A stretch of 64,000 nucleotides of DNA from Candidatus Woesebacteria bacterium GW2011_GWC1_42_9 (GCA_000995185.1 LCET01000003.1:6989-70988); one strand, 5' to 3'. Positions 7,303 through 39,991 are shown, counted from the first letter of the stretch. The notes: a model not told the origin generated them from the sequence alone. Made by a program: numbers and translations.

Positions 7303-8376
7303 ATGCTTGATTCAAAAGAATTGGGAAAGATCAAAAGAAAAATATTGTCCCGCCATTATGTTTTGGTACGGGCTGTCTTAGCCTCGGCATTAATACTTTT
7401 GTTTTTGTTGGTTATTTGGGGGATCCTTGGTTTTTTAAAAAAAACGGTCGTTGGTAAGTACACTGGCATTGCCAGATCTTTCATTGTCACTCCAAAGAAC
7501 CAAATATTTGCAATAGACGGAAAAACAAACATTCTTGTATTAGGAAAAGCCGGTGAAGGAAATATCGCTCCGGATTTGACTGATACGATAATGCTTGCGT
7601 CGGTTGACCATGAAAATGGGACTATAAAATTGGTTTCCTTGCCGAGGGATATTTGGATTGAGGACTTGAGAGCAAAGCTTAACAGTGTTTACTACTGGGG
7701 GGAAGAAAAGAAAGAAGGGGGAGGGATAGTACTGGCGAAATCTGTAGTGGAGGAGATTACTGGCATACCGGTGCACTATGCGGTGGTGGTAGATTTTTCC
7801 GGCTTTAGTGAAATTATTAATACTTTGGGTGGGATCGAGGTAAATGTTGACCGTTCGTTTACAGATGAGGATTACCCCATCCCCGGGAAGGAAGCGGATG
7901 AATGTGAGGGGGACCCAGACTTTTTATGTCGGTATGAGACGATTCATTTTGATGCTGGGACGCAAATGATGGATGGAGCAACGGCACTTAAATTTGTCCG
8001 ATCAAGAAATTCAAAGGACCCAGAAGAGGGGACAGATTTAGCGCGGTCGGTCAGACAGCAGAGAGTGCTGGCTTCGATTAAAAATAAAGCCCTAAGCTCC
8101 GAGACCCTTTTTTCGTTTAGTAAATTAAAAAGCCTTCAGGGGGAGGTGGATAATATGATCGAGACGGATCTTGATGAGCGAGGATTGGCAATTTTGGCCA
8201 GAAGAGCGCTGGAAGCAAAAGACAACTTTTTAGCTATGAGTATGCCAGAGGAGCTATTAATAAACCCACCCTTAAGCCACAAATACGATAATCTTTATGT
8301 ATTTGTCCCAAGGAGCGAAAACTGGGATGAGATTAGGTCTTGGTTTGAAGATGTTTTTGCCAACATTAATTATTAG
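7303..8376 (+). CDS. LytR-CpsA-Psr (LCP) family cell-envelope polymer transferase
   Basis: N-terminal TM, then 'TNILVLGKAGEG...DTIMLASVDHENGTIKLVSLPRD...VVVDFSGFSEIINTLGGIEV', typical of the LCP catalytic domain. Confidence 0.75.
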   Translation: MLDSKELGKIKRKILSRHYVLVRAVLASALILLFLLVIWGILGFLKKTVVGKYTGIARSFIVTPKNQIFAIDGKTNILVLGKAGEGNIAPDLTDTIMLASVDHENGTIKLVSLPRDIWIEDLRAKLNSVYYWGEEKKEGGGIVLAKSVVEEITGIPVHYAVVVDFSGFSEIINTLGGIEVNVDRSFTDEDYPIPGKEADECEGDPDFLCRYETIHFDAGTQMMDGATALKFVRSRNSKDPEEGTDLARSVRQQRVLASIKNKALSSETLFSFSKLKSLQGEVDNMIETDLDERGLAILARRALEAKDNFLAMSMPEELLINPPLSHKYDNLYVFVPRSENWDEIRSWFEDVFANINY

Positions 8377-10645
8377 GATATTACTTATAGGATTGCCCGC
8401 ATTTGAGGTTGATATGGCCGCTTGGATCGCCTGGGCGGAGAGATTAGGGGAGGGAAGCCTCGCGAATTTTTATTCTGATACAGTTTGGACGCAATACACT
8501 CCTGGATTTTTACATGCTTTGTGGATTTTTGAGAGGATTGGGATGGCGAATGAAGTCTTTATAAAACTTTTTGTTTTGTTTGGGGATATTTTCACTGCTT
8601 TCACGGTTTCATATATTGTGCGACTCACGACCAAGAAATGGGGAATGAATGCGGTAATAATATATTTACTCACTCCTCCACTCATCTTCGTTGGATCGAT
8701 CTGGGGACAAATTGACGGGTTTTTGACAATGTTAATTTTATTGGCGGTCTATTTTTTAATAGAGAAGAAAGACCTCCCCACTTCTAGCGTCTTTTGGGCC
8801 CTCTCCTTTTTAGTGAAGCCTCAGGCCTTAGCCGCCCTCCCTTTGTATTTATTAGTGATCCATAAATTTTCGCCAAAGATTGTTTTCAAGTCGGTGATTT
8901 GTAGTTTAGGAACGATATTGATAGTAAGCGCTCCTTTTTTCCCCCGCGACCCCTTATGGGGGTTCCCGAGATTAGTCCTTAAGATGAGCCAGCATTACCA
9001 CTTTGGGAGTATTTTTGCCTTTAACCTATGGGCTCTATTTGGGAAGACTTGGATCCCCGACGGCACGTATTTTATTTGGGGAATAATAATTTATCTTAGC
9101 TCGATTATAATTTTGATTGCCGCCTTTTTGAGATCAAAAAGGACTTCCTTGGAAATGTACTTATTTACAAGCCTTTGTTTTTTAAGCTTTTTTTTATTTC
9201 CCACAAGGATCCATGAGCGCTATTTGTACCCATTTTTTGCGTTCTTTTTGATTTTTATCATTATTTCCGATTTTAAGCATGGGCTTAAAATATATTTTGC
9301 TACCTCTCTTGTCTATTTAATTAATCTTTATCATCCATACGCTTACTACTCAACAAATTATTTGAGGATTGAGCCTCTCCTCTCCCTCACAGGGCACTTC
9401 ACTAAGCCAGCGGCAATATATTTTTTAGGATTGTACTTCTATCTGGTTATTTATCTGGGGAAATTTAAATTGCGGGTTCCCAAAATTGACATAAAGACAA
9501 TTCTGATATTTGCATTTCTTGCAAGGATTTTATTTTTAAATTCACCTCCGAATGAATATTTTGACGAGGTATATCATGCTTTTACTGCAAGAAGGATGCT
9601 TGCCGGAGATAGTTTAGCTTGGCACTGGAGCGGGGGTGCTCCAGAAGGGTTTGCATACGAGTGGACTCATCCCCCACTGGCCAAGCTTGGGATGGTTTCA
9701 GGAATGATTTTACTTGGGGAAAATTCTTTTGGGTGGAGATTTCCGGCGGCCCTTTTAGGGGCAGGCGCGGTTTACCTGGTTTATTTGATTGCGGAGAAAT
9801 TTTTTGGTAAGCGTGTGGCCCTATTGTCTGGAGGGGCATATGCGCTTGATGGATTAGTACTAGTCACAAGTAGGATCGGGATGAATGACGTTTATTTTTT
9901 GTTTTTTATGTTGGCTAGTTTTTATTTGTTTTTGGGCAAAAAACATTTTGTTTCGGCTCTTACCTTAGGGCTGGCGGCGGCGAGCAAATGGAGCGTATTG
10001 TGGTTTTTGCCTGTCCTTGCCCTCACCCATTTTGGACTAAAGCGAAAAATTGTTCGTGATTATGTTTGGTTTTTGATTTTGCCCCCTCTGATATATTTTG
10101 CAAGCTACACCCCCATGTTTTTTGCGGGGCTTGGACTGGCTGATTTTTGGGAGATGCAAAAGCAGATGTGGTGGTATCACACGAGACTTGTAGCGACACA
10201 CCCTTATACTTCTCCATGGTGGAGCTGGCCGATTTTACTGCGCCCGATATATCTTTATGTCGGAAACGATGGGAAGTTAGTTGAAAAGATATATGCGATG
10301 GGGAATCCGGCGATTTTTTGGGGCGGGATAATTGCCGTAATTTACTCGCTTCGAGAGGCAATCGCTTTTCGTGAGAAAAAGTTGCTAGTTATAGTCGGTA
10401 GCTATTTTATTTTCTTTGTTCCCTGGGCACTATCACCAAGAATAATGTTTTTATACCACTACCTCCCCTCAATCCCATTCATGGCAATATTAATTGGATA
10501 TGCACTTAGTAAGGATCAAAAATTGGTTTTGCCTTTTTATCTTTTTACTCTTTTACTCTTCCTATACTTTTATCCGCACTGGACTGGTGTGGCCATCCCA
10601 AAATGGCTTGATGAAACTTATTATTGGTTCCCAAGCTGGAGGTAA
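8297..10645 (+). CDS. Polytopic membrane glycosyltransferase with two GT-C-like halves; the C-terminal half is PMT/ArnT-like (GT39/GT83-type)
   Basis: More than 15 predicted TM helices. The second half carries 'NEYFDEVYHAFTARRMLAGDSLAWHW...THPPLAKL', the signature DE loop of GT39/ArnT-type enzymes. Start uncertain (overlaps the LCP 3' end; alternative Met codons at 8327 and 8351). Confidence 0.55.
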   Translation: MYLSQGAKTGMRLGLGLKMFLPTLIIRILLIGLPAFEVDMAAWIAWAERLGEGSLANFYSDTVWTQYTPGFLHALWIFERIGMANEVFIKLFVLFGDIFTAFTVSYIVRLTTKKWGMNAVIIYLLTPPLIFVGSIWGQIDGFLTMLILLAVYFLIEKKDLPTSSVFWALSFLVKPQALAALPLYLLVIHKFSPKIVFKSVICSLGTILIVSAPFFPRDPLWGFPRLVLKMSQHYHFGSIFAFNLWALFGKTWIPDGTYFIWGIIIYLSSIIILIAAFLRSKRTSLEMYLFTSLCFLSFFLFPTRIHERYLYPFFAFFLIFIIISDFKHGLKIYFATSLVYLINLYHPYAYYSTNYLRIEPLLSLTGHFTKPAAIYFLGLYFYLVIYLGKFKLRVPKIDIKTILIFAFLARILFLNSPPNEYFDEVYHAFTARRMLAGDSLAWHWSGGAPEGFAYEWTHPPLAKLGMVSGMILLGENSFGWRFPAALLGAGAVYLVYLIAEKFFGKRVALLSGGAYALDGLVLVTSRIGMNDVYFLFFMLASFYLFLGKKHFVSALTLGLAAASKWSVLWFLPVLALTHFGLKRKIVRDYVWFLILPPLIYFASYTPMFFAGLGLADFWEMQKQMWWYHTRLVATHPYTSPWWSWPILLRPIYLYVGNDGKLVEKIYAMGNPAIFWGGIIAVIYSLREAIAFREKKLLVIVGSYFIFFVPWALSPRIMFLYHYLPSIPFMAILIGYALSKDQKLVLPFYLFTLLLFLYFYPHWTGVAIPKWLDETYYWFPSWR

Positions 10646-10667: not shown

Positions 10668-11552
10668 TTAGAGTACCAGGATTAATGCTCCGACGAAGAG
10701 AAGTATTGCGGCGCCGACTCCGACAAAGGTAGGCGTGCTTACTCCGGCATCAGGCAGGCTGGTCGATGGCGTGGCAGTTGGGGTAGCGGCCCTGGCAAGC
10801 GAGCAAGTGCAGTCGGTCTCATCATCACACTGTGGATTTCGGCAGCGATTTGAAACACAATCCATTCCGCTTGGACACTCATTGTCATTGGTGCAAGCGT
10901 CGTTGCAGACGATATCTTCATCTACTTCCGCGCAGACACAGTCGGTTTCGGCGCGGCAGTCTGGATTTCGGCAGGTATCTGAGGTACTGTCACAGACCAT
11001 CGAAGTCGGGCAGTCACTATTGTTGTCGCAAGTGTCATTACATTGAGGGTTATCCGCAGGTTGACAAGTCGTGGAATCAGGATTTTCATCAAGACGACAT
11101 CGAAGATTACCAGCATCATCGGTGTCAGAGCAAGTAAAATCAGGATCAACAGCCACACATTCGGCATTTGTCGTACAAGAGTCATTGCAACTATCAGGTA
11201 CGACCGGCGCTTGACAGTCAATCTCATCTGGGTAGGCAGTTAAGCGACAGCTATCGTCAACACCATCATCATCAGTGTCGACACAAGTGTGGTTGGCCTC
11301 AGTGCAGTCCGTGTCATCGGTACAGGGATCATTGCATCCAGCTGTCTCTGCGGTAGTGGTGAAGGTGAGATCACAAGTATTGGTGAGAGTCGGAGCCGCG
11401 GCGCCTGGGATCGATTCAGGGGCAGATGGTGCTACCCTCTGGGACCTTAGGGAATAAAGCCTTACGGCCGTGAAGATTGCTATCCCCCCAAGAACCAAGG
11501 TGGAAACTAAAATTATTACGGTTACTTTATTTCTTTTTATAAAATCTAACAT
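10668..11552 (-). CDS. Cysteine-rich modular surface protein (N-terminal signal anchor, about 5 Cys-rich repeats, C-terminal LPDAG plus hydrophobic tail)
   Basis: Repeats have the pattern C-N-D-x-C-x5-C-x6-C-x6-C-R-N-P and are D/T/N-rich. The C-terminus is '...SLPDAGVSTPTFVGVGAAILLFVGALILVL'. Locally elevated GC. Confidence 0.6.
   Translation of the reverse strand: MLDFIKRNKVTVIILVSTLVLGGIAIFTAVRLYSLRSQRVAPSAPESIPGAAAPTLTNTCDLTFTTTAETAGCNDPCTDDTDCTEANHTCVDTDDDGVDDSCRLTAYPDEIDCQAPVVPDSCNDSCTTNAECVAVDPDFTCSDTDDAGNLRCRLDENPDSTTCQPADNPQCNDTCDNNSDCPTSMVCDSTSDTCRNPDCRAETDCVCAEVDEDIVCNDACTNDNECPSGMDCVSNRCRNPQCDDETDCTCSLARAATPTATPSTSLPDAGVSTPTFVGVGAAILLFVGALILVL
10760..11420 (-). repeat. Intragenic tandem repeats encoding about 5 cysteine-rich modules of 36-45 aa
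   Basis: Repeated CxDxC...CRNPxC blocks are visible in the translation of 10668..11552. Confidence 0.5.
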
Positions 11553-11564
11553 TTAATTTAATAG

Positions 11565-13193
11565 TTAAAACCAACCAATAGTCGCGTCTGTGTGATGTAA
11601 TTCAGCTGAAATAGTAAACGTTGTCGTCCCGGCGGGGATAGTGTATTCATCGTAAAATTCTTGAGTGTTTGGCCGCTTTTGGGTGACCGCAGTTCGCACG
11701 ATGCCGTTAATTGAAAATCTCGCGCGATCTAGTGTGCCGGAGGTGGTTGTCCCATTAGCTGTAAAGCGGACAATGTCCCCCTCTCTTAGTTCGGTTAAAT
11801 CGGCAGCGGTCAGAAGGACCCAATTGTTATCAAAGGCTTTAATGTTTAGGCATTGAGCGGCTATGGTGGTGTCGATAGCCCCTGAGGGAGTAGGTGTCGC
11901 ATCCCCAGATGGGGTTGGAGTGGCTTCACCGCACACACTCTGACCATTTTGGGCAATGGCAAGATTTGACTGTTGTATTCCATCAGAATTGACTACATCA
12001 ACTTGTTGTGAACCGCAGAAGCTGCTATCAACGCACTCTTGGCCACTTGTAGAAACGAGCTGACCGCCAGTGGCTGCTGTGCATCTCCCATCCTGAAGGA
12101 AAGTACTACATTGCCACTTTTGGACAGAGAATCCATTAGTGGTATCTGCGCTACAACAGCTTCCGGCGCAAGCATTTGTCCCTGCCGCCGGCGGCTCCCT
12201 GTCGGCAACCGCTACGCACCTAGGTGGGTAGTTTGGGTTAGTCCCAGGCCTGGGACAGTCTGCAAGTGACAAAACACAAGCATTGCGACTGTAACATCTA
12301 ACTGGGTACCCAGTACCTACGCAATTAGTATCATTGTAGTTATACCATGAACAGGCTAATCCAGATCCACAGCTTTGGATTGTCCATGTTCCATTTGTCT
12401 CCATCGTCCCACAAGTTTGCCCTGAGCCGAGCAACCCCGAAGGAACAGGGGTGGGAGCTGTGGTCTGGCTTGAGCAACTTACATCAATTTGGCAACCTGC
12501 ATCTGTTATATTTCCTGTGGCTGAGTCACATTGGTATGCATGTCTTTCTCCAGAGGGACAACCATTTTGCCCGCATCCGCTGGAGTAATACTGCCCATTG
12601 GGGCAGTTATCTACGGGAGTGGTTGGGCAACTGCTAGGATTAAATGCACCACAGTTAGTTGCATAACAAGGACTTTGTCCACTACAAGTGGAAGGATCGA
12701 CTTCTACGCATTGGCAGATGTACCCAGTGTTTTGTCCTCCTTCTGTTTGACACGAAGGATAAGTGCCTCCACAGCTAGAATCCGTACCTGTGTAAGCCCC
12801 TTGTTGGAAGAGTTGTTGTTGCTGAACGAGGGCTAGCCCTGCCCCCACGGCTGCAACCAAAACCAATACCCCCAGTATCCCACCAACTACTTTTTTATTT
12901 AGTTTTCTTCCTCCGCCTCCCCCGGAAACGGTAAATGGCTCTGGTTCGCTTGTTTCTGTGGTCGGGCTCGTATCTCCAGAGACCGGAGCAGACCCGCCAA
13001 ACGGCGAGCTATCGGGCGCTGGCGCCTCTCCGGTTGATAGCGGTGGCGGCGGGACAGTTGACATATCAGTCGGAGTATTCATTGGCGGCGGCGGCGGAGG
13101 AGTAGTCATCCCTGGGGTATCACCAGCAAGACCACTTGCCGATGAGGCGGGTGCAGTTCCTTGGGTTTCGTCTGTTTTGGCAGTAGGATCCAT
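11565..13193 (-). CDS. Type II membrane-anchored cysteine-rich extracellular protein with Pro-rich N-terminal tail
   Basis: N-terminus 'PPPPPPPMNTP...', single TM 'VVGGILGVLVLVAAVGAGLALV', then about 40 Cys in a G/S/T/Q-rich ectodomain. Confidence 0.55.
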   Translation of the reverse strand: MDPTAKTDETQGTAPASSASGLAGDTPGMTTPPPPPPMNTPTDMSTVPPPPLSTGEAPAPDSSPFGGSAPVSGDTSPTTETSEPEPFTVSGGGGGRKLNKKVVGGILGVLVLVAAVGAGLALVQQQQLFQQGAYTGTDSSCGGTYPSCQTEGGQNTGYICQCVEVDPSTCSGQSPCYATNCGAFNPSSCPTTPVDNCPNGQYYSSGCGQNGCPSGERHAYQCDSATGNITDAGCQIDVSCSSQTTAPTPVPSGLLGSGQTCGTMETNGTWTIQSCGSGLACSWYNYNDTNCVGTGYPVRCYSRNACVLSLADCPRPGTNPNYPPRCVAVADREPPAAGTNACAGSCCSADTTNGFSVQKWQCSTFLQDGRCTAATGGQLVSTSGQECVDSSFCGSQQVDVVNSDGIQQSNLAIAQNGQSVCGEATPTPSGDATPTPSGAIDTTIAAQCLNIKAFDNNWVLLTAADLTELREGDIVRFTANGTTTSGTLDRARFSINGIVRTAVTQKRPNTQEFYDEYTIPAGTTTFTISAELHHTDATIGWF

Positions 13194-13196
13194 AAT

Positions 13197-14549
13197 CTAA
13201 TTTGTGGCCTTGGCCGAAACAAAAACTCCAGCCAAAATCAAGCCTAATCCCATCGTAGCCAACAAAAGTGTTGGCGTCAAGTTCCCCGCTACAGGAGTGC
13301 CCGCGCCGGTTGCGGGGAGGCTCACTCGAGGCGTCGCTGATGGGGTTGCTGTTGCTTTGGTCTTGGGGGTTGCCGAAGGTGTGGCCTTTGGTGTCGCCGA
13401 CGGGGTGGATTCAAAGGCTGGCCCACTTGCGGCGCTAACGATGAAGTTCTTGGTAATATTGTGCAATATCCCGGCCGCATCGCGCCAGGAAAGTGTAACT
13501 GTGTGCTCTCCCTCTTCTAAGTCATCAGGCGGGGTCCACTCCCAGTTGCCGTTTGCATCGACAGTGACCTTATCCGTCTGAGGATCTGACCGGACAGTGA
13601 TAGTGATGATCTCACCAACTGGGCCTTCACCAAAAAACTCAGGGGTAGTGGTGGTGATTTCTTCATCTTCTTCTATGCTTTCGATTGTTACTGTGCCGCT
13701 TGCTGTTGCATCAAGTTCTTCATCGTCCCCCGTGTCAAACCCTGACGTTGTTGCGTCAAGGTCTTCGTCTTCTGGAAGAGTAAGCTCCGCGCTGGTCAAG
13801 CCATTTTCTCCGGAAATTTCTGTGTTTTTAAAATTGTATGTTTGCCCAAGAGTGATATTTGGGGTCGGGTTTGCAGTTTGCGGGTAGGCTTGGGCGGTAG
13901 CTACCCCACGGCTTGCCGCTTGGACAAAAATCTCGATCAAGGTAGCACTTGAATTTATCGTGGCGTGCGCAGATAAGTCAGGGGTTCTGGCGGGGGAAAG
14001 GGGGATAAGCCACCCCCCAGAGTTTGAAGTGGTGGTAGAGAGAGGGGAAAAACTGCCCGAATTAATAAAGACCAGCACCCCGATAGCCGGCTCTCCAGTT
14101 GCCGTAAGGACGGTGCCGGAAAGCATTTGCGTGGTGGTAGTTTGAGACAGGATCGGGCCGGTGGCTTGCTGCCAAGGAATCCCATTGTTGTCATAATTTT
14201 CTCCATCGGAGTTTATTTTAAAGAAATTGACGGCTCCCGGATCTAGCCCGTCGATGGTAATAGAGTGAATACCCTTGGGGGTAGTATCGCTTTCATACTC
14301 AGTATTGTCTAAGCTTGATTCGCTTTCGCCCCAGACGATGTAGCCAATAGTGTCTCGATCAGTAGTCCAGTTGACTGCAAAAGAGGCGCTCGTGATATTT
14401 GTGATCCTGACGTCTTTTGGCGCTGATTCAGGGCTTGCTCCAAGTTTGAAGACTTGGGCGCGCTGGACCAAAAACACACCCACTCCTAACCCGAGCAACA
14501 AAATTATTATTCCGATAATAGTGGGGATCCCACCAACTGCTTTCTTCAT
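13197..14549 (-). CDS. Sortase-anchored (LPATG) surface protein with a fibronectin-III-like domain and acidic and PT-rich repeats
   Basis: N-terminal signal anchor. 'VRITNITSASFAVNWTT...YIVWGE' is FN3-like. 'TPSATPKATPSATPKTKATATPSATP' is a linker. C-terminus is 'LPATG' plus a hydrophobic segment plus K, a canonical sortase sorting signal. Confidence 0.7.
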   Translation of the reverse strand: MKKAVGGIPTIIGIIILLLGLGVGVFLVQRAQVFKLGASPESAPKDVRITNITSASFAVNWTTDRDTIGYIVWGESESSLDNTEYESDTTPKGIHSITIDGLDPGAVNFFKINSDGENYDNNGIPWQQATGPILSQTTTTQMLSGTVLTATGEPAIGVLVFINSGSFSPLSTTTSNSGGWLIPLSPARTPDLSAHATINSSATLIEIFVQAASRGVATAQAYPQTANPTPNITLGQTYNFKNTEISGENGLTSAELTLPEDEDLDATTSGFDTGDDEELDATASGTVTIESIEEDEEITTTTPEFFGEGPVGEIITITVRSDPQTDKVTVDANGNWEWTPPDDLEEGEHTVTLSWRDAAGILHNITKNFIVSAASGPAFESTPSATPKATPSATPKTKATATPSATPRVSLPATGAGTPVAGNLTPTLLLATMGLGLILAGVFVSAKATN

Positions 14550-14554
14550 TGATT

Positions 14555-14905
14555 TTAAATTTGTGACCCAGCCGGGCTCGCTTCACTGGCAGAGGGGGTC
14601 GCTTCCTCCGTCGCTATCGGCACTTCTTCGGCGATCTCTTCCACCGGGGGCAATTCGGCCGGTTTGATAGTCGTATCGCCGATTTCGATTTCATTTAGGT
14701 ATATTCTATTTTGTAACCCGCCAAGGACTTCCGGGTCAAGTTTAAAAGTGAATCTTTGACTTTCGTCTTTCTCAAGAATTTCCTCAGGGACGGGGAAAGG
14801 GGGCTCCTTTGTAAAAACGCGATAAGTCTCGAAGCTTATCCAAATAACGACAGTAATAGCCGATAAGATGATGAGATTGACTACAAATGGTCTTTTGCTT
14901 TTCAT
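14555..14905 (-). CDS. Small single-pass membrane protein (possible pilus-assembly accessory, PilP-like position)
   Basis: 116 aa with an N-terminal TM 'FVVNLIILSAITVVIWISF'. Sits immediately downstream of pilO with a 4-nt overlap. Confidence 0.4.
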   Translation of the reverse strand: MKSKRPFVVNLIILSAITVVIWISFETYRVFTKEPPFPVPEEILEKDESQRFTFKLDPEVLGGLQNRIYLNEIEIGDTTIKPAELPPVEEIAEEVPIATEEATPSASEASPAGSQI

Positions 14906-15543
14906 TTTATAAAGTATGGCGTGACGGCTTCGATGATCATATTTAATCCCTCTACCCTTGCGTCATCTACAATCGAAATTGTAGTAGACCTGCCCACTAA
15001 AGGACGCCTCATCAGCTCAAGATTAGTCAAAAATGAAATTAGAGATGGGTACTCTCCGGCGGCGCTCATCAGAAATTCCATGTTCTTTGCTCCGAGGACT
15101 TTTTCTTCTCCTTCTTTTTCCCCTTTACTCTCTTCAAATAGAGGAGCTTTTTCGATATCAAAATTTGTGATTTCTACTCCGCTTCTTTGGGCGAGTCCCT
15201 CAATTTGGCGTATTTCACTAGCCGGAAGGGAGGAATCTGGGACCGCCGAGTCAAGGAGGTTAATAGTAGCTTGGTTGGCGTCATAATAAGCTTTGGCTTG
15301 GGTTAAATTTGTAATTTTTAGGTCCAGCGCCTGGACCACTTTTTCTTTCTCGCTAATTTCACTTCTAAGTTCTCCAATGGTTGCCAGGGTTGGCTTGATC
15401 GCAAAAGTGCCAAAGACCATTATCGCAATAAGTGAAAGAATAAGCTCCGTAAAAACCCGGACATCTGCCCGGGCACGGTAAGTCTTTGACATTTCGTAGA
15501 TATATTTTCTGGTTAATTGGGGAGACGCAAAGGATTGGGCCAT
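14902..15543 (-). CDS. pilO: Type IV pilus assembly protein PilO-like
   Basis: 213 aa with an N-terminal TM, then coiled coil 'IGELRSEISEKEKVVQALDLKITNLTQAKAYY'. PilO-like topology, located directly after pilN. Confidence 0.6.
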   Translation of the reverse strand: MAQSFASPQLTRKYIYEMSKTYRARADVRVFTELILSLIAIMVFGTFAIKPTLATIGELRSEISEKEKVVQALDLKITNLTQAKAYYDANQATINLLDSAVPDSSLPASEIRQIEGLAQRSGVEITNFDIEKAPLFEESKGEKEGEEKVLGAKNMEFLMSAAGEYPSLISFLTNLELMRRPLVGRSTTISIVDDARVEGLNMIIEAVTPYFIK

Positions 15544-15544
15544 G

Positions 15545-16096
15545 TCAGGTTTTTATTTCTATTTTTAAACTAAATTTCACAAAAGGGGTGTCTCTTTGAG
15601 TGCCAATTTCCGTGAGAGCAATATCTGTAAATAATTCATCTTTTTTTAGGTTAACAATAAGCTGGGAGATAGACTGCTCTGAAGTAGTTTGCCCGCTTAT
15701 GTTGATGTCTTCATCTGTAACTCTTAAAGATGTGAGCTGGATATCCCCGGGGATCTTGGAAACGATCGAAGTAATTGTGGGCACTCTTTGGTTTTGGCTT
15801 GCGGTATATTCCGTGAGTACTTCTGCTTTGGCCTGAATGTTTTTAAATTCTCTCTCAAATTCGGAAAATGAAGCGATGTAGGAGGACTTTTGCTCGAGGC
15901 TATGGTCAAGGTCCGCGTTTTTGGCATCAAAACTAAAGCGCGCCAAAAAGCTTCCAACCACAACGATTTCGACACTGATCACAATCATCCTGAAAGTGGT
16001 GATAGCCCACTTTAAAACACGTCCCGCGGTCGAGACCTCAAACTCGTCTTTTGGAAGAAGATTAATAACCCTTTTAGGTTTCTCTTTGGCAGGCAT
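15545..16096 (-). CDS. pilN: Type IV pilus assembly protein PilN-like
   Basis: 'KRVINLLPKDEFE' is the conserved PilM-binding INLLP motif. It is followed by a TM and a periplasmic coiled-coil domain. Confidence 0.65.
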   Translation of the reverse strand: MPAKEKPKRVINLLPKDEFEVSTAGRVLKWAITTFRMIVISVEIVVVGSFLARFSFDAKNADLDHSLEQKSSYIASFSEFEREFKNIQAKAEVLTEYTASQNQRVPTITSIVSKIPGDIQLTSLRVTDEDINISGQTTSEQSISQLIVNLKKDELFTDIALTEIGTQRDTPFVKFSLKIEIKT

Positions 16097-16135
16097 CCTA
16101 ACCTCACTATAACACGGGGCAAACTGTGAAAGAAA

Positions 16136-16378
16136 TTATTTTTTCTTTGGGGTGAGTTTGGAGAGAGCGGACTTTATCCGGGCGGATTTATTTCTGTGGA
16201 TTATCTTTTTTTTAGCGGCGCGGTCGGCCAAAGAGATAGCCTTGATCACGTCAACTTGTTTTTTGGTTTTTTTGGCCATGCGGATAGCGATCTCTAAGTT
16301 CTTTCTGGTAAGATTATTGACAGAGGTCTTTCTTCTTGAGGACCTTAGGGCACGCTTTGCTGTGACGGTTACTGGCAT
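16136..16378 (-). CDS. rpsT: 30S ribosomal protein S20
   Basis: 'MPVTVTAKRALRSSRRKTSVN...' is basic and S20-like. Start placed at the second Met of the ORF. Confidence 0.8.
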   Translation of the reverse strand: MPVTVTAKRALRSSRRKTSVNNLTRKNLEIAIRMAKKTKKQVDVIKAISLADRAAKKKIIHRNKSARIKSALSKLTPKKK

Positions 16379-16420
16379 ATTAGTAATCATCAAGTATAAT
16401 CGAGGCCAAGTTAAATATCA

Positions 16421-18115
16421 ATGTTTAAGAACCTGATAACAAAAAGTAAATCACTCGCCGGTCCGCAATCAACGATCCTTTCTGCGGCGACTTTGATCAT
16501 GCTAATGATAATTGTCTCCAGGATCTTTGGATTTCTTAGGCTCCGCGTACTTGCTTATTATTTTGTAGATGAAAAGCTCTCGCTATTCTTTGCGAGCTTT
16601 AGGCTTCCTGATTTAATTTTTGAGGTACTTACTTTGGGAGTGCTCTCTTCGGCTTTTATTCCGGTCTTTACCAAAGCTCTCAAAAAAGACGAAAAGAGTG
16701 CATGGGATATCGCCGGGAGGGCAGTAAATATCGGGCTTTTGATTTTTGCTGTGATGTCGCTTGTTTTTGGGCTCTTAGCTGGAAGGATTTATAAGTTAAT
16801 TGCCCCGGGGTATAGCCCTGAGCAAGTGGGTGAAGTAGCCGATCTGGCAAAGATACTTTTCGCGGCGCAGGGGTTTTTTGTCGTGAGCTATATCATGACT
16901 GGAGTACTTGAGTCCCAAAGAAGGTTTTTAATTCCTGCTCTTGCTCCGATTTTTTATAATCTTGGGATAATTGTTGGGACAATTCTTTTTGCTGAAAAGC
17001 TTGATTTATTGGCCCCAGTAATTGGGGTGATCATCGGGGCGTCGGCTCATTTCATCGTGCAATTACCATTGGCTTATCGATTAGGCTTTAGGTTTGTACC
17101 TTCGCTTGTCCCCGATGAGGGCTTGAAAAAAATAGGAAGGCTTGCCGCGCCTCGAATAATTGAGCTCTCTTTCCTGCAGGGTTCAAGGATGGTGGAACTA
17201 TTCCTCGCATCGATGATTTCTTTGGGAGCATATGCCCACTACAACTTTGCCCTAAGCCTCCAAGCTTTGCCCGTAGGGCTTTTTGGGACATCAATGGCCA
17301 AAGCCGCTCTGCCTACTTTGACCAGTCAGAGTGATGACCTTGCGGTTTTTAGAAAGACTCTCCTAAAGACGCTCTATCAGCTAATATTTCTTATTTCTCC
17401 GATGACAATGATGCTTATCGTTTTAAGAGTCCCTGTGGTTAGGCTTGTTTTTGGAACAAACATTTTTGATTGGGAGGCGACTTTGGAAACAGGGTTTGTC
17501 CTTTCTGCCTTTGCCCTTGGTGTGCCCTTCCAGGCCGCGGTTGCGCTTTTAAATCGTGCGTTTTACGCCCTTCATAATACAAAAACCCCGGTTTTAATTT
17601 CGTTGTTTAGTGCCGGGATAACCGCATTTTTGGGGTATGTGCTGGTCATCGAATTTGAAATGTCCACCTGGGCGATCGCGGCGGCATTTAGTGTTGGGGT
17701 TGGGGTCCAAGCAGTGATATTATTTGCCCTCCTAAGTAAAAAACTTAACGGGGGGACATTTTTTGCTCTCCTCCCTATTGTAAAAAGTATCTTGTCCTCA
17801 CTAATTTCTGGGAGTGTGATGTTTTTTATTTTAAAGTTCTTCGATCGCTCCGTGTGGATAAAGAAGCTCTCGTTTTTGGGTGGGGTTGAAACGCAAAATA
17901 TTAATTTTGAGATATTTGTGATCGATACCCGGTATACATTTAACTTGTTAGTCCTGACCTTTGTCACTGCCTTGATTGGCGGAATTACATACTTGCTCTG
18001 CGCTTGGATGCTAAGAAGTGAAGAATTGTATGTTTTAGTTAATATTTTTCGAAAAAGAAGATTTACTCCCCCTCCAGCTAAAGAGTCTGAATTAATCACT
18101 GTTGACAGGGATTAG
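16421..18115 (+). CDS. murJ: Lipid II flippase MurJ (MviN)
   Basis: 564 aa, about 14 TM, 'SRIFGFLRLRVLAYYF...FFASFRLPDL...', the MurJ/MOP superfamily pattern. Confidence 0.85.
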   Translation: MFKNLITKSKSLAGPQSTILSAATLIMLMIIVSRIFGFLRLRVLAYYFVDEKLSLFFASFRLPDLIFEVLTLGVLSSAFIPVFTKALKKDEKSAWDIAGRAVNIGLLIFAVMSLVFGLLAGRIYKLIAPGYSPEQVGEVADLAKILFAAQGFFVVSYIMTGVLESQRRFLIPALAPIFYNLGIIVGTILFAEKLDLLAPVIGVIIGASAHFIVQLPLAYRLGFRFVPSLVPDEGLKKIGRLAAPRIIELSFLQGSRMVELFLASMISLGAYAHYNFALSLQALPVGLFGTSMAKAALPTLTSQSDDLAVFRKTLLKTLYQLIFLISPMTMMLIVLRVPVVRLVFGTNIFDWEATLETGFVLSAFALGVPFQAAVALLNRAFYALHNTKTPVLISLFSAGITAFLGYVLVIEFEMSTWAIAAAFSVGVGVQAVILFALLSKKLNGGTFFALLPIVKSILSSLISGSVMFFILKFFDRSVWIKKLSFLGGVETQNINFEIFVIDTRYTFNLLVLTFVTALIGGITYLLCAWMLRSEELYVLVNIFRKRRFTPPPAKESELITVDRD

Positions 18116-27373: not shown

Positions 27374-30300
27374 ATGAAAGTAATTAAAAAGAGTATTAAT
27401 CTCGGAGATCGAGAATTAACCCTCACTATCGGAAAATTAGCTGAACAAGCCCAAGGGGCAGTACTCGCTCAATATGGCGAGACTGTTGTGTTGGCCACAG
27501 TTACTTCTTCTCGTCTCAAGGAAGATTTGGGGTATTTCCCTCTTACCGTAGAATATCAAGAGAGGCTGTATGCTGGTGGGAGAATAAAAGGTAGCCGGTG
27601 GGTAAAGCGGGACGGTAGACCTGCCGATGACCATATTCTTTCTGCACGTCTCATTGATAGATCCATCCGCCCTCTTTTTCCGAAAGAATATGATAATGAA
27701 GTCCAAGTTGTTGTAACTGTCCTTTCTGTGGACTTGAAGAATGACCCGGTAGCAATTGCCCCTGTTGCCGTTTCCGCCGCGCTTGCTCTCTCCCCAATTC
27801 CCTGGCTTGGACCGATAGGATCGGTAACCGTTGGGATGAGTGATGGTAAGTTTGTTGCTAACCCTCAAAATGGCGATCTTAAAAATTCAAAAATGGAATT
27901 GGTTGTTTCATCCACCGACAAAGCCATTGTGATGATTGAAGCTGGTGCAAATGAAGCCAGTGAAGAAGATATTTTGGGAGGTGTCGAGTTTGCATATAAA
28001 GAGTCCAAAAAGATAATTAAATTTATTAGTGACTTAGTCAAGGAGGCGGGGTCTAAAAAGGAAGCAATTGAGAAGGAGAAAGCTGACCCTAAGCTAGAAT
28101 CTAAAGTCAAAAAGATCGTTTCAAAGGAGTTGGAAAGCTTAGCCAAAAAAATTGCCGCTAAGGAAGCAAGCTTTGGGGATCTTGATGTGTTGAAAGCTTC
28201 CATGGTGGACCATGTGGGGGAAGAGAATTTGGAAAAAGCAGTTGAACTAATCGAGGATCTCTTTAAAGAGGAAGTTAGATCGATTATTTTGGGCGGGAGC
28301 AGGCCTGACGGTAGAAAATACGAAGAAATAAGGAAGCTCAGTTCCGAAGTGAGTGTGTTGCCAAGGACCCACGGGTCAGCGATTTTTAAGCGCGGGTCTA
28401 CACAGGCGCTTACAGTCACCACATTAGGCGCGCCGTCACTAGGGCAACTAATTGAATCGGCCGAAGGGGAGGAAGAAAAGCGCTATATTCATCACTATTC
28501 TATGCCGCCATATGCCACAGGGGAGACGGGAAGGATTGGGTCACCCGGGAGGCGGGAGATTGGGCATGGTGCACTGGCCGAGCGAGCCTTGATTCCAGTA
28601 ATTCCTGGCAATGAAGAGTTTCCATACGCGATTTATTTGGTTAGTGAGATTATGAGTTCAAACGGATCAAGTTCAATGGCGTCGGTCTGCGGCTCGACAA
28701 TGTCTTTGATGGACGCAGGTGTTCCCATCAAAAGGCCAGTTTCGGGGATTGCAATGGGACTTGTGATAGACGCGAAGAAGATCGCAATTTTGTCCGATAT
28801 TGCTGGGATTGAGGACTACTACGGCGATATGGATTTTAAAGTTGCAGGATCAGTAAATGGCATTACCGCGCTTCAGCTTGATGTTAAAACTTTGTCACTT
28901 ACCCCAGACATATTGAAAAAGGCCCTTTCTCAGGCAAAAGCAGGACGCGCTGAGATATTAAAGTCTATGCTTGCGACCATTGATAAAGCCCGGGAAAAAG
29001 TCTCGGAGCATGCACCGAAAATAAAATCAACGAAGATTGATCCAAGCAAAATTGGTGAGGTCATTGGTCCGGGGGGAAAGACTATTAAAAATATTATCGC
29101 GACTACCGGGGCTGATGTTGACGTTGAAGATGATGGAACTGTCAGTGTTTCTGGGATAGATGGCGAGAAGGTAAACGAGGCACTCGCTTGGGTAGAGAAT
29201 CTGGTAAAAGAAGTTGAACCAGGTGAAATTTATGAGGGAACAGTTAAGAGAATAGAATCTTTTGGCGCTTTTGTCGCAGTGCTTCCTGGTAAAGAAGGGC
29301 TTGTGCATGTCTCTGATATGTCTGAAGGATTTGTGGAAGATGCGAATAAGGTAGTTAAATTAGGCGACAAAGTGCAGGTTAGAGTTAAGGAGATTGATAA
29401 CCTGGGGAGGATTAATTTATCAATGATTTTGGACCCAAGCAAAGAGAAAAAAAGGCCCCCTCAGAGAGATTTCCGCAAGGGCGGTCAAAGGAGAAGTTTT
29501 AATCGTCCCAGAGTGGGAAGGTCTGGCTCTGGACCGCATTTCCCGACAAGTAGATTAGTCTCGCAAAGGAGAGAAAAAGATAAAGGCTCACTGAAAATAA
29601 AAGGCGGCTCGGTGTTTAATATCAAAAACTTGGACGTCGAGGTGCCTCTCGGCCGGCTGGTTGCGGTAACCGGCGTATCGGGCTCGGGCAAGTCGTCGTT
29701 CCTCTACGAAATTTTGCACGAAAAGACTTTTTTGCCGGAACTAGATCGGATAGGCCGTTATGTTGACTGGATAGTTGCTCTTCCTTGGGAAAAGCGGACT
29801 AAAGACATCTTAGATATTCAAAAAGCTAAAGAAACAATGGATAAAAATCATTATGGATTGCTGGCACTAAAAGATCGAGTGATTGAGTATATGTCAGTCA
29901 TGATACTTAAATCTCAAAGTCGGGAAATTGCCCGTGCGCCGATATTGTGTTTTGTGGGATTAGTGGGGACTGGCAAAACAACAATTGCGGCGTCTATCGC
30001 GGAAGCATTGGGAAGAAAATTTGCAAGGATCCCATTTGGAGGGATGGGAGATCCGTTGGACCTTCGTGGGCAATCAAAAGCACATGCAGAAGCTGAACCA
30101 GGAAAGGTCATTAAAGCCCTTCGCAGCGCCGAGAGCAAAAACCCGGTGATCCTTTTGGATGAAATTGATCGAGTGACTGACGAAGGCAGAGCTTCGATAA
30201 TGGGTGTATTAGTCGAGCTTTTAGATCCCAGGCAAAACCAAGCTTTTGTGGACCATTATATCGATTATCCTTTTGATTTGTCTGAAGCTATTTTTATCGC

Positions 30301-37268: not shown

Positions 37269-39356
37269 ATGAGCAAACAAACTGAGTTTTATTGGTCTTT
37301 GATTATCGAGCCGGGGTGGATCCAAGCCGCGGTGTGGACGATTAATGAGGAAAAACTAGCCCATATTGTTTCAGTGAGCCCTTCTATTAAATGGGAGGAA
37401 GAGGCTGATTTAGTGCAAGTTGTGGATTCTGCTTTGTCTGCGGCAATCCATAAATTTCCTGAAGGAGCCCCTGAGCCGCAAAAGACGGTGTTTGGCGTTT
37501 CTTCTTCGTGGGTAGCAGACGGCAGTATTAAAAAGGAACATTTAGACCAGATTAAAGACGTTTGCTCAAAGCTTTCTCTTAAGCCAAGCGGTTTCGTCGT
37601 CCTTTCGGAAGCTTTGGCTCATGCGGCAAAGATGGAGGAGGGAGCTCCATTAACCGGGGTAGTAGTAGGACTGGGAGAAAATACTGTCGATATTGCAGTA
37701 TATAAAATTGGAAACCTAATTGGATCTGTAAACGTGGGTAGAAGCATTTCAATTTTTGATGATATTATGGAAGGACTGGCAAGGTTTAAGGGTAGTGACG
37801 CATTACCCTCAAGATTTTTATTGTACAACGGGAATGAAGCTGAGCTTGAAGATGCCAAGCAGATATTGATTTCTTCAGATTGGGTAAATAATCCGAAAGT
37901 AGAGGGGGTAAGATTTCTTCATACGCCGCAGGTGGAAGTAGTGGGGAGTGAAAGAAAAGCGGTCGCAGTGAGCTTGGCCGGGGCGAGTGAGATAGGAAAT
38001 GTCGAGGGAGTACTAATGCGAGATGGTGTGAAAGACAGTGAACTGTCTTCGGATACCAATGTGGAAGCTGAGAAGATGGGTTTTGTTCTCAATCAAGATG
38101 TTTCTAAAGAAGTGGACAAAATTCCTCAAAGTTCATTGGATCTTCCAGGCAGAAGCATGAAGAGGGTCATTTTAAAAAAACTGCCAGCTTGGCCAAGGAT
38201 AAGTTTTATAGAGTTGGGGTCGATCAGAAAAAAGAAAATTGTTGTTGGCGCAGCGTTGGTTTTGTTGTTAGCGATATTTATCTCCTCTGCAATTTTCTTG
38301 CCAAAAGCTAAAGTTGTCATCTATGTTTCTCCGAAGACTTTGGAAGAGACTGAATATATTACACTAAGCGAGAGCCTATCAAGCCCCGATTATGAGGAGA
38401 GAATTCTGCCAGGTGAAACAATTGAAGTGGAAGTTAGCGGGAGTAAAACAAATAAGGCAACGGGGGCGATAACAATAGGAGACAAAGCAGAAGGAACAGT
38501 TGAAATTAGGAACGGGACATCAGTTTCAGTAAAACTTTCCGCTGGGACAATTCTTTTAGGGAAGGATGATTTGAAGTTTGAGACCTTGGAAAGTGCTTCT
38601 GTCTCAGCCGCATCTTCCCCTTCAAGTCCAGGAACTCAGAAAGTAACTGCGAAAGCGGTTGGAATAGGTGCGGAATATAACTTGAGCGAAGAAAGCGGGT
38701 TTAGTGTTGGTAATTATCCAAAAAGCGAAGTGGACGCTATCGCTAAAGTGGCATTTAGCGGAGGGTCTAGCCGTGACATTGTCGCCGTATCTCAAGATGA
38801 TTTGGATAAGCTGGAGGATGACTTGACTAAGGAGCTTCTTGAAGATGGGAAAAGTAAGTTATCCGGTAATGTCAGCGAAGGGATGATGCTTGTGAATGGC
38901 GTGCTTGAGACGGATGTAATTAGCCGAGAATTTAGTCAAAAAGAGGAAGATGAAGCAGAGAATGTTACTTTGGATTTAAAAATCAATGTTAAAGGCGTCA
39001 CCGTCAACGAAGAGTTGATAAGGAAATTTGCTTTTGATTTAATGGGTCCAGGCATCCCGTCTGGATTTGCTTTGCGCCCGGAGCAAATAACGATTGATTT
39101 CTCGCTAGATGAGGAAGTAGACCGAGGCGAGTGGATATATGAAACGGTGTTTAAAGCAAATCTTTTGCCGGAAACGGATACTGAAGAAATTGCTAAAAAA
39201 ATAGCTGGAAAAAAACCTCAAACTGCTCAAGATTATTTAAAAACAATCCCAGGATATGTAAGAAGCGAGGTGGAATTAAATTTCAACATACCGATCTTGG
39301 GTAATCTGCCCTACCTCACTCAAAATATTAGCATCGAGGTAGAAGCAGAGAAATGA
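37269..39356 (+). CDS. Membrane protein with an N-terminal actin-fold (ASKHA; FtsA/PilM-like) cytoplasmic domain, one TM, and a large extracellular domain
   Basis: Phosphate-1-like 'YWSLIIEPGWIQAAV' and phosphate-2-like 'TGVVVGLGENTVDIAVYKIG' motifs. TM is 'IVVGAALVLLLAIFISSAIFL'. No LPXTG. It overlaps the downstream sortase gene by 4 nt. Confidence 0.4.
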   Translation: MSKQTEFYWSLIIEPGWIQAAVWTINEEKLAHIVSVSPSIKWEEEADLVQVVDSALSAAIHKFPEGAPEPQKTVFGVSSSWVADGSIKKEHLDQIKDVCSKLSLKPSGFVVLSEALAHAAKMEEGAPLTGVVVGLGENTVDIAVYKIGNLIGSVNVGRSISIFDDIMEGLARFKGSDALPSRFLLYNGNEAELEDAKQILISSDWVNNPKVEGVRFLHTPQVEVVGSERKAVAVSLAGASEIGNVEGVLMRDGVKDSELSSDTNVEAEKMGFVLNQDVSKEVDKIPQSSLDLPGRSMKRVILKKLPAWPRISFIELGSIRKKKIVVGAALVLLLAIFISSAIFLPKAKVVIYVSPKTLEETEYITLSESLSSPDYEERILPGETIEVEVSGSKTNKATGAITIGDKAEGTVEIRNGTSVSVKLSAGTILLGKDDLKFETLESASVSAASSPSSPGTQKVTAKAVGIGAEYNLSEESGFSVGNYPKSEVDAIAKVAFSGGSSRDIVAVSQDDLDKLEDDLTKELLEDGKSKLSGNVSEGMMLVNGVLETDVISREFSQKEEDEAENVTLDLKINVKGVTVNEELIRKFAFDLMGPGIPSGFALRPEQITIDFSLDEEVDRGEWIYETVFKANLLPETDTEEIAKKIAGKKPQTAQDYLKTIPGYVRSEVELNFNIPILGNLPYLTQNISIEVEAEK

Positions 39357-39991
39357 GAACTGGGTTCTATCAAAGAATTATCGGAGGGGCAGGCATAGCC
39401 TTGGGAATACTTGTCTTGGGATATATTTTATTACCCATAATCACTTATGAATTAGAGGCGTCAAGGTTTACCTCTTATTTGTCGCCTGTTCCCAAAAAAG
39501 AAATCGATTTTACGAGGCTAAGTAATTGGTTTAGTGAAGACGTTGTTACCGAAACAGTGTCCCCTCTCTTGGTGGATCATTACACAATCAGCATTCCCTC
39601 CCTTGGGATTAAAGATGCCTCGGTTGCAATAGGGGGGGAAGATTTATCTAAATCCTTAATTCAATATCCAGGCACGGCCTTGCCAGGGAAACCTGGGAAT
39701 TCAGTGATCTTTGGTCACTCTATCCTTCCCCAATTTTATAACCCAGATGATTATATGACGATTTTTTCCACTCTGCCCACAATGGAAATTGGAGACGAAA
39801 TACAAGTTTTCTATGACGGGGCAAAGTATTACTATAAAGTTGAAGATATGTTTGAAGTTTCCCCAAACGACATTCAGGTATTAGAGCAGAATTTAAGTGA
39901 TTCTTTTGTGACGTTAGTGACATGTACTCCGCCAGGACATCCCTTAAGACCCAAGAGACTGATTGTTCGCGCGCGCGTTGTCTCAATATAA
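39353..39991 (+). CDS. Sortase (class A/E-like transpeptidase)
   Basis: N-terminal TM anchor, catalytic His 'VIFGHS', Cys motif 'LVTCTP', downstream Arg 'RLIVRARV'. Confidence 0.8.
   Translation: MRTGFYQRIIGGAGIALGILVLGYILLPIITYELEASRFTSYLSPVPKKEIDFTRLSNWFSEDVVTETVSPLLVDHYTISIPSLGIKDASVAIGGEDLSKSLIQYPGTALPGKPGNSVIFGHSILPQFYNPDDYMTIFSTLPTMEIGDEIQVFYDGAKYYYKVEDMFEVSPNDIQVLEQNLSDSFVTLVTCTPPGHPLRPKRLIVRARVVSI

Follow-up and report, generated by a model that had tools for sequence, protein, structure and literature searches.

The gene cluster led by pilN on the minus strand of a 64,000-nucleotide (nt) stretch of Candidatus Woesebacteria bacterium GW2011_GWC1_42_9 (GCA_000995185.1 LCET01000003.1:6989-70988; the whole stretch is referred to as the window) suggests that Woesebacteria, ultra-small groundwater bacteria of the Candidate Phyla Radiation (CPR), have a pilus or attachment apparatus with a hitherto undescribed envelope part. 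The tight unit consists of six genes, pilN, pilO and four further genes designated g4 to g7 (10668-16096), and our preferred, tentative reading is that they form an operon, headed by pilN, for an envelope module of pilus or attachment machinery that is anchored to the wall and joined by disulfides. CPR bacteria (Patescibacteria) are thought to live attached to other cells, and to our knowledge the type IV pilus (T4P) is the sole attachment machinery experimentally shown in the CPR, and only in Saccharibacteria. The locus is therefore presented as a class-wide candidate for how the T4P machine is held in, or crosses, the wall and surface layer of monoderm CPR. It comprises four uncharacterised envelope proteins, of which two are probably anchored in the wall through non-canonical sorting signals, together with a disulfide predicted between two of the proteins and a hypervariable cassette at the surface, which differs even between strains that are nearly identical. 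Three unannotated families, the g6 C-terminal domain among them, are defined by the locus as well, as is a conserved promoter motif in organisms with poorly known transcription signals.

A first reading of the window, made from the sequence alone, had described seven genes, beginning with that of ribosomal protein S20 (rpsT), packed with gaps of 14 nt or less. ORF calling confirms seven co-directional minus-strand open reading frames (ORFs) across 10668-16393, and the identities assigned to them (S20, PilN, a PilO-like protein, a small transmembrane protein, an FN3 protein and two Cys-rich proteins) are borne out by the ORFs, Pfam and hydropathy. The close packing holds for the six genes from pilN to g7, with gaps at the five junctions of 1, -4 (an ATGA overlap), 5, 3 and 12 nt in order, and does not hold between S20 and pilN, which lie 39 nt apart. 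In a hydropathy scan each product from PilN through g7 has one N-proximal transmembrane helix, and g5 and g7 have an additional one at the extreme C-terminus.

Conservation of this arrangement was followed in two independent scans. The first used a PilN alignment to search GTDB, each species being represented by a single genome, and gave 57 loci with 34-43% PilN identity, in which ORFs were called and searched by phmmer with the window proteins; the second, over metagenome contigs with a g5 alignment as query, gave 80 loci. The relatives are Woesebacteria, Chisholmbacteria and other Microgenomates, all of them CPR, and an identical PilN protein occurs on groundwater metagenome contigs of up to 0.7 Mb. 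In the great majority of loci from the first scan, S20, PilN, PilO, g4, g5, g6 and g7 follow one another in a single direction, with MurJ and then HrcA leading away on the S20 side and a convergent PMT-like gene, present in most loci, after g7. Wherever flanks exist in the second scan, PilN-PilO-g4 precede g5 and g6-g7 come after it. The same gene order thus recurs in sister genomes, with 127 non-identical loci in the two scans combined, dominated by the complete orders from S20 to g7 and from PilN to g7, most others being cut by contig ends; the possibility that the genes are unrelated neighbours varying between strains is not what is seen, the arrangement being conserved across the CPR class. 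Over the GTDB loci the median gaps are 1 nt for PilN-PilO (54 loci), -4 nt for PilO-g4 (ATGA overlap in 24/53), -4 nt for g4-g5 (ATGA overlap in 22/47), 4 nt for g5-g6 and 3 nt for g6-g7, compared with 67 nt (range 7-1355) for S20-PilN. The six-gene arrangement is far beyond chance, and its junctions look translationally coupled. The packing of pilN and pilO with sortase-type and disulfide-rich surface-protein genes, put forward in the sequence-only reading, is accordingly a conserved one, with overlaps of the kind associated with translational coupling.

Comparison across the loci gives good support to an operon of six genes, the transcription of which would start at a conserved promoter of its own between rpsT and pilN. 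An alignment of pilN upstream regions yields a family consensus (C)TTCTTTCAC-N11-(A)TGnTATAnT, a bipartite motif with an extended -10 element, of which the window copy reads TTTCACAGTTTGCCCCGTGTTATAGT, its -10 box ending 9 nt before the pilN ATG. The motif is unique in the 64-kb window (0.01 expected); in the 150 nt that precede pilN, 49/55 related loci have its extended -10 element and 21/55 have the full motif. Over 1.94 Mb of locus DNA the full motif occurs 24 times, and 22 of these sites are directly in front of pilN. The rpsT gene has a sigma-70-like promoter site of its own (16393-16421, 10/12 matches) in the divergent spacer shared with murJ and, taken together with the pilN-specific motif, this indicates that the transcription unit most likely starts at pilN. 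Consensus scans found no excess of promoter-like or terminator-like signals over chance inside the pilN-g7 unit, including the stretch between pilO and the surface-protein genes. The inclusion of rpsT in the operon is not supported: judged by the spacer in relatives and the conserved promoter-like element, rpsT is an upstream co-directional neighbour outside the tight unit, although no terminator was seen between rpsT and pilN and read-through from rpsT is possible, if not required. A -10-like box lies just 2-9 nt from the start codon for both rpsT (16390-16398) and pilN (16097-16111) on the minus strand, a spacing that hints at 5' leaders that are very short or lacking altogether in this organism; most relatives have 10-36 nt between the pilN -10 box and the start.

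Judged by profiles and topology, PilN and PilO are true members of their families. PilN matches PF05137 at 46.0 bits (cut-off 22.8, E=5.3e-12), a domain carried by 22/24 of its homologues, and has the sequence VINLLP at residues 10-15 of a short cytoplasmic N-terminus that is followed by a transmembrane helix (29-56), with N12, L13 and P15 invariant across 24 homologues. We take INLLP to be the PilM-binding peptide, as in the Thermus PilM-PilN peptide structure, and a PilM encoded elsewhere is thus expected. The window PilO, which is also bitopic (transmembrane residues 26-57) and starts 1 nt past the pilN stop, scores 14.1 bits against PF04350, below the cut-off of 22 (E=0.054); the family is nevertheless matched by 41/49 PilO orthologues (best 6.1e-13), and the orthologue profile matches the PilO structures 3jc8 (Myxococcus, 2.3e-8), 5uvr and 2rjz. 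The sole defining feature of PilN/PilO that the locus lacks is an adjacent pilM: as the sequence-only reading had observed, none precedes pilN, and none was found in the 64-kb window, in 10 kb past each end or upstream of pilN in related loci, so that the layout, with pilN/pilO detached from pilM, is indeed non-standard for T4P. A 333-amino acid (aa) ORF before pilN in one relative (L049) was considered as a pilM and rejected, being of winged-helix type and not an actin-like ATPase when read by eye only. A regular-expression scan of the window ORFs found no class III pilin signal (G/FTLxE), which is also absent from the N-termini of g4-g7. In one species, two paralogous ORFs of ~200-230 aa without a Pfam match lie between S20 and pilN (L059:8642-9945), their N-termini resembling class III pilin-like signals without Glu at +5 (MPNRKGFTPIIILVV...).

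The two genes that follow pilO encode proteins of very different size. The product of g4, the ATG of which overlaps the pilO stop (ATGA), has a transmembrane helix, a conserved juxtamembrane VPxEILxPLxPTLDxxxLxxIxxR stretch seen in the alignment and a low-complexity tail; it has no match in Pfam or NCBIfam, its profile has none among PDB sequences, and neither it nor g5, g6 or g7 matches a PilP or Secretin profile in Pfam or NCBIfam at E<=1. The g5 protein, which is conserved at full length in 42 species and has a cysteine count of zero, begins with the transmembrane helix and an FN3 domain (42-113). Residues 143-212 form a CarboxypepD_reg-like domain and residues 293-362 an Ig domain of Big_13/SiiE-like type, after which a Thr/Pro linker leads to the sorting-type signal at the C-terminus. 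The g5 family profile matches FN3 domains and the SiiE BIg structure 2yn3 (1.5e-7) in the PDB. Mean global identities over 216 pairs of related species are 0.59 for PilN, 0.62 for PilO, 0.51 for g4, 0.62 for g5, 0.36 for g6 and 0.44 for g7; g5 therefore diverges at the rate of PilN/PilO, in the manner of a structural partner rather than of a fast-evolving adhesin. Among the surface proteins, only the Cys-rich middles of g6 and g7 are variable. Elsewhere in the genome, ~5 kb beyond the 3' end of the window, a 1135-aa protein carries fn3, LysM and CarboxypepD_reg domains (L146:15270-18677), so that domain sets resembling that of g5 are found in further envelope proteins of this genome, and a 682-aa Pur_ac_phosph_N-like protein is encoded beyond the 5' end (L147:18637-20685).

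Neither g6 nor g7 has a match in Pfam or NCBIfam, and both combine conserved ends with variable middles that are stacks of disulfide-rich modules. The C-terminal domain of g6 (~95 aa) is predicted to be a beta-sandwich, with a predicted local distance difference test score (pLDDT) of 87.7 for its AF2 model; its profile has no match among PDB sequences and Foldseek gives no significant fold relative. The same profile finds 1333 clusters (at 50% identity) among 1.84 billion representatives, always with the domain at the extreme C-terminus, which makes it a sizeable unannotated family; a single-sequence homologue search returned 2 proteins and an alignment search 20, low-complexity words saturating the index. 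In g7 the N-terminus is a strongly conserved transmembrane helix with an RLYxLRxxxVAPxxP motif (family form RLYQLRQxPVAPNVP), and C60, L266, P267 and G270 are invariant in 35 species, in 4 of which the middle of the protein is a DUF11/CARDB beta-sandwich instead of Cys modules. No consistent Pfam family could be assigned to the Cys modules, the matches to Dumpy DPY, DUF7107, Stig1 and toxin knots being sporadic and confined to single species, and they contain no tandem DNA repeats, the only such repeat (24 nt, 2.1 copies) lying in the g5 Thr/Pro linker. The rate of change is illustrated by two strains that are 96-99% identical in their other genes: the ends of g6 are identical, and ~130 residues of its middle are swapped for different Cys modules, which are internally duplicated. 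The GC content of g5-g7 (51% versus a 42% background) was considered as a sign of foreign origin and rejected as such, because the surplus is at codon position 2, with GC at position 3 near background, and reflects proteins rich in Thr, Pro, Ala, Gly and Cys.

The number of cysteines in g6 and g7 proteins ranges from 1 to 53 and is mostly odd: in 81/90 g6 and 73/80 g7 proteins, in 61/66 and 71/75 of those with complete termini (binomial p ~1e-13 and ~1e-17, for sequences that are related to one another), and in 124/133 full-length members of an independent representative set. Minimal forms have exactly one Cys, at the invariant position. The odd counts and the single invariant residue are most simply read as disulfide bonding within the modules, with one Cys left unpaired in each protein. 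Moreover, g6 and g7 behave as a pair in gain, loss and duplication (duplications are seen in L020, L042 and L086), and since the two always travel together, an intermolecular disulfide between Cys448 of g6 and Cys60 of g7 is the most economical explanation, and is what the sequences suggest; homodimers or a free thiol are possible alternatives. The predicted bond fits the reported enrichment of the CPR in sortase, which is near-ubiquitous in Microgenomates, and in an MdbA-like oxidoreductase with VKOR (PMC6744442); T4P parts are reported there to be enriched as well. Additional, chimeric genes occur in the clusters of some relatives (L016:15002-15790, L038:15056-15724, L094 and L102), some joining a g6-type N-terminus (Pro-rich segment, transmembrane helix and Cys modules) to a g7-type IPxSG+24 tail, others encoding Cys-free proteins with a VPQSG+24 tail, from which the '+24' tail appears to be a reusable module within the locus.

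The only two window ORFs with PxxG followed by a hydrophobic C-terminal tail are g5 and g7. The g5 C-terminus reads ...LPATGAGTPVAG-NLTPT-hydrophobic-SAKATN, so that the LPATG, hydrophobic tail and K noted previously are present, although the motif shared by the family is a PxxG that lies seven residues closer to the end. In the window this PxxG reads TPVAG and is 28 residues from the C-terminus, compared with 35 aa for LPATG. Family-wide, the signal is PxxG-xLTPT, a hydrophobic helix and WK..., with G422 invariant and P419 near-invariant, while the LPATG position is conserved only within a sub-clade, as LPATG, LPSTE, RPATD or QPSTA; either LPATG or TPVAG could be the cleavage site. After the hydrophobic stretch g5 has a single K, in SAKATN (WK.. 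in relatives). For g7, the LPDAG and hydrophobic tail described earlier are confirmed, and the family signal consists of an invariant LPxxG, xxxPT and exactly 24 residues after the G, ending in LLLAL (ALILVL in the window). A candidate enzyme for both predicted signals is the product of the only sortase gene in the window, which has the TLVTC and FGHS motifs and exceeds the cut-off of the general sortase model TIGR01076 (52.6 versus 39.35 bits); it reaches the cut-off of no class A-F model (class C, 56.5 versus 160). The sortase gene has a 4-nt overlap with the 3' part of the preceding ORF, of 695 aa (37269-39991, plus strand, both genes included), that has no Pfam match and no sorting signal and is made up of a ~320-aa cytoplasmic N-terminal part, one transmembrane helix and a large extracellular part; this may be a sortase-associated membrane protein. 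No sortase adjacent to the operon and none of class C was found in the window, and the Lys-bearing pilin motif (YPKN) is absent from g5, the most conserved stretch of which, A-[QK]-[IVA]-[FY]-[PT]-[QNA]-[ST]-[AG]-[KNH]-P, reads AQAYPQTANP in the window, with no Lys. For these two reasons, the lack of a nearby class C sortase and of a Lys-bearing pilin motif, the locus is not, as far as its sequence goes, a sortase-dependent pilus locus.

Table 1. Positions of the pilN-g7 genes, their principal elements and associated features in the window.
Feature	Position (nt)	Strand	Residues	Description
S20 (rpsT)	16136-16393	-		PF01649 and TIGR00029 above cut-off; start used by gene callers, ATG 16390
pilN	15545-16096	-		183 aa, bitopic T4P alignment protein
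pilO	14902-15543	-		213 aa, bitopic T4P alignment protein
g4	14555-14905	-		116 aa, small single-pass protein
g5	13197-14549	-		450 aa surface protein, no Cys
g6	11565-13193	-		542 aa, type II membrane protein, 31 Cys
g7	10668-11552	-		294 aa, 29 Cys
Promoter-like bipartite motif	16106..16131	-		TTTCAC-N11-TGTTATAGT (extended -10), rpsT-pilN spacer
g5 C-terminal signal	13200..13319	-		LPATG 411-415, TPVAG 418-422, NLTPT, hydrophobic helix, SAKATN
g6 Pro-rich cytoplasmic N-terminus, then transmembrane helix	12816-12902	-	98-126	
g6 hypervariable Cys-rich cassette	11931-12773	-	141-421	30 Cys
g6 invariant Cys448	11850-11852	-	448	At start of C-terminal domain
g6 conserved C-terminal beta-sandwich (predicted)	11568-11861	-	445-542	
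g7 invariant Cys60	11373-11375	-	60	C-x-LTFT
g7 four Cys modules	10803-11336	-	73-250	6+6+8+8 Cys
g7 LPDAG and hydrophobic tail	10671-10757	-	266-270 + 24	24-residue tail; A not T at position 4
LCP (LytR_cpsA_psr) protein and GT87+PMT-type glycosyltransferase	7303..10645	+		Pfam; conserved convergent neighbours of g7
Sortase	39353..39991	+		Only sortase gene in window, 23 kb away; PF04203, 1.2e-23

In the preferred reading, the four lineage-specific single-pass proteins most likely build an extracytoplasmic, wall-attached part of the T4P machine, or a pilus-associated assembly, of a monoderm CPR bacterium. The pilN promoter would produce one mRNA for six single-pass envelope proteins, a step that is well supported by the comparative evidence. 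PilN and PilO, by virtue of family membership, would form their usual heterodimer and PilN would dock a PilM encoded elsewhere through INLLP, and g4 and g5, translated in step with PilO, may bind the PilN/PilO ectodomains or transmembrane helices. Sortase would cut g5 and g7 at PxxG and link them to peptidoglycan, thus tying the complex to the wall, and the membrane-anchored g6 and wall-anchored g7 would be joined by the Cys448-Cys60 disulfide, the pair displaying a rapidly changing disulfide-knot cassette that could serve binding of a partner cell or substrate, or evasion of phage. Both the physical coupling to the pilus and the sortase processing of g5 and g7 are steps that we infer, and a host-attachment role, as the sequence-only reading had it, would follow in the same conditional way. 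All of g4-g7 bear Thr/Pro-rich linkers, and linkers of this type are O-mannosylated in Actinobacteria by PMT enzymes; going by neighbourhood, the PMT-type and LCP enzymes encoded next to g7 may glycosylate those of g4-g7. A more specific version of the proposal, in which PilN/PilO-g4-g5 fasten the T4P machine to the wall as the monoderm counterpart of PilP/PilQ, and in which the disulfide-linked g6-g7 pair with its LPx[AS]G+24 signal sets the partner cell or surface of the epibiont, appears unlikely in its full detail.

Several observations weigh against a wall-anchored module of the pilus. No pilB, pilC, pilT or pilin genes were found in the window, in the 10 kb beyond it or in the related loci and, with pilM also missing, the link to a working T4P machine rests on the homology of PilN and PilO. 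The g7 tail, which lacks the basic residues of canonical sortase signals, has none in any species, and neither g5 nor g7 matches the NCBIfam LPXTG-anchor model (TIGR01167) at E<=1. The single-sequence structure model of g5 (pLDDT 35.8) is unusable, and g5 is missing or truncated in seven loci (L048, L049, L052, L055, L021, L045 and L054). Assignment of the g6 domain to a known fold was rejected, since it resembles only generic beta-sandwiches (the Wzt carbohydrate-binding domain, FN3-like CbhA and RhoGDI; best E=0.024, TM-score ~0.5). Both g6 and g7 are missing from the divergent locus L060. All related loci from both scans belong to one clade (34-53% identity), providing no independent lineage, and ~30 kb around the locus (IF-2, NusA, DnaJ/K, GrpE, HrcA, MurJ ... 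PMT, LCP, UvrD, FemAB) is also syntenic, so that conserved order alone is weak evidence on function.

The leading alternative, somewhat unlikely in our estimation, is that pilN and pilO serve the T4P and that g4-g7 encode independent wall-anchored adhesins or surface proteins, physically separate but co-transcribed so that adhesins are made when pili are, an idea close to that of the sequence-only reading. A single operon with a single promoter is consistent with this arrangement, the Ig and FN3 domains of g5 are of a generic adhesin type, hypervariable cassettes such as those of g6/g7 typify regions exposed for binding or as antigens, some lineages have lost g5 or the g6/g7 pair separately, and FN3/CarboxypepD_reg surface proteins also occur elsewhere in the genome. 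Stoichiometric partners are nevertheless a better fit to the ATGA overlaps of pilO/g4 and g4/g5, which are kept in about half of the loci, and to the evolution of g5 at the PilN/PilO rate, unlike an adhesin; in the 80 metagenome loci, moreover, relatives of g5 are never found away from PilN-PilO-g4.

That the cluster is an inherited neighbourhood only, a frozen Woesebacteria gene order with no functional link between pilN/pilO and g4-g7, is improbable, despite the same genomes having kept the unrelated hrcA-grpE-dnaK, murJ, rpsT, uvrD and femAB genes in the same order. These neighbours have normal spacers or lie on the other strand, whereas the six genes, with gaps of 0-5 nt or 4-nt overlaps, are set apart from the syntenic flanks by the conserved overlaps, the shared strand and one conserved promoter without internal signals, and all six products are single-pass envelope proteins. 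The core also withstands rearrangement: in L060, where the flanks are altered (S20 inverted and murJ co-directional), PilN-PilO-small transmembrane protein-g5 stay together. Lastly, co-option of orphan PilN/PilO, without a pilus role, as a scaffold for an envelope or surface-display assembly (positioning of sortase substrates or wall growth) is very improbable, since the invariant INLLP argues that PilM is still a partner, the PilO ectodomain has remained recognisable to T4P PilO profiles and T4P parts are reported to be widespread in the CPR (PMC6744442), even though pilM never lies next to the pair, the surrounding genes all serve envelope biogenesis (MurJ, LCP, PMT/GT87 and FemAB) and TM7x, by contrast, has pilM, pilN and pilO with pilB, pilC and pilT (PMC11623550).

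The operon is flanked in the window by MurJ, HrcA-GrpE-DnaK-DnaJ, NusA and IF-2 on one side and by the GT87+PMT-type glycosyltransferase, the LCP protein, UvrD and FemAB-type enzymes on the other. The glycosyltransferase within 7303-10645 is a fused GT87 and PMT/PMT_4TMC protein of 782 aa that, with the LCP protein, is convergent to g7 in most related loci; in the window the convergent PMT-type gene lies within 22 nt of g7. Many relatives have an extra ORF of ~95 aa with two transmembrane helices directly after g7 (for example L036:14606-14893, with equivalents in L023, L029, L047, L050, L056, L105, L113 and others), which is absent from the window. Further from the locus, all on the plus strand, a 2028-aa ORF within 42054-48925 fuses Rpb2_1-7 of RNA polymerase beta in frame to Rpb1_1-3 and the start of Rpb1_5 of beta', the remainder of Rpb1_5 being a separate ORF in another frame (48107-48925) with a 34-nt overlap; either rpoB and rpoC are fused here and rpoC is split or frameshifted, or the assembly is in error. 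A 1088-aa ORF (27374-30640) has the full PNPase architecture (two RNase_PH, KH and S1; residues 1-684) followed by a C-terminal AAA+ ATPase with a Lon-type lid domain (858-1072); if this is one gene, the fusion is uncommon. An FtsK/SpoIIIE protein (32630-35269) has additional C-terminal HTH_25 and Glucodextran_B-like domains.

The gene set was not found described in full-text literature searches, the nearest reports being PMC6744442 and PMC4736985. The latter describes, in the CPR lineage Peribacteria, large (~1,650 aa), exported, strain-variable Cys-rich proteins with a proposed attachment role (PMC4736985). These resemble g6 and g7 in being exported, variable and high in Cys, but are much larger and are not described with pilN/pilO, a conserved C-terminal beta-sandwich or an odd-Cys rule. 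In Actinomyces and Corynebacterium, surface assembly involves disulfide formation by MdbA/VKOR and, for sortase substrates, LCP-dependent glycosylation, as cited in PMC6744442 and PMC11623550. Those systems share with the present locus exported disulfide-bonded proteins, sortase anchoring and nearby LCP and glycosyltransferase genes, and differ in that here there is no pilin motif, no adjacent class C sortase and no MdbA/VKOR gene in the window, and the link to glycosylation is by neighbourhood only.

With the LPXTG signals of Gram-positive bacteria, the g5 and g7 termini share a C-terminal pentapeptide ending in G, a hydrophobic helix, Thr/Pro-rich wall-spanning linkers and a sortase gene in the genome. 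The families here are, however, [LIVT]Px[TSA]G-xLTPT for g5 and LPx[AS]G-xxxPT with exactly 24 aa ending in LLLAL for g7, g7 is without a basic tail, neither matches TIGR01167 and the sortase fits no class A-F model; as predicted signals, they fail two defining features of canonical LPXTG signals. Among T4P loci of monoderm bacteria (Clostridium, Streptococcus sanguinis, and loci 1 and 2 of the Saccharibacteria TM7x, which is also a CPR member; PMC11623550), PilN and PilO likewise function without an outer membrane, but pilM, pilN and pilO sit there with pilB, pilC, pilT, pilD and pilins (PMC11623550), whereas in the Woesebacteria locus the only companions of pilN and pilO are the genes for four envelope proteins, none of them a pilin, next to rpsT and murJ.

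Compared with the pilMNOPQ alignment operon of Pseudomonas, Myxococcus and Thermus, the locus differs in having no pilM upstream, a g4 without the PilP beta-sandwich, a g5 that is not a secretin and two extra Cys-rich proteins after g5, and in belonging to a monoderm organism, in which anchoring would be to peptidoglycan via sortase-type signals. The likeness extends to the back-to-back bitopic PilN and PilO, the INLLP N-terminus and the tight coupling, and also to the order of what follows pilO, a small anchored protein in the position of pilP and a larger envelope protein of several beta-domains in that of pilQ. Of the known systems, it is this alignment operon that the locus appears to work most like.

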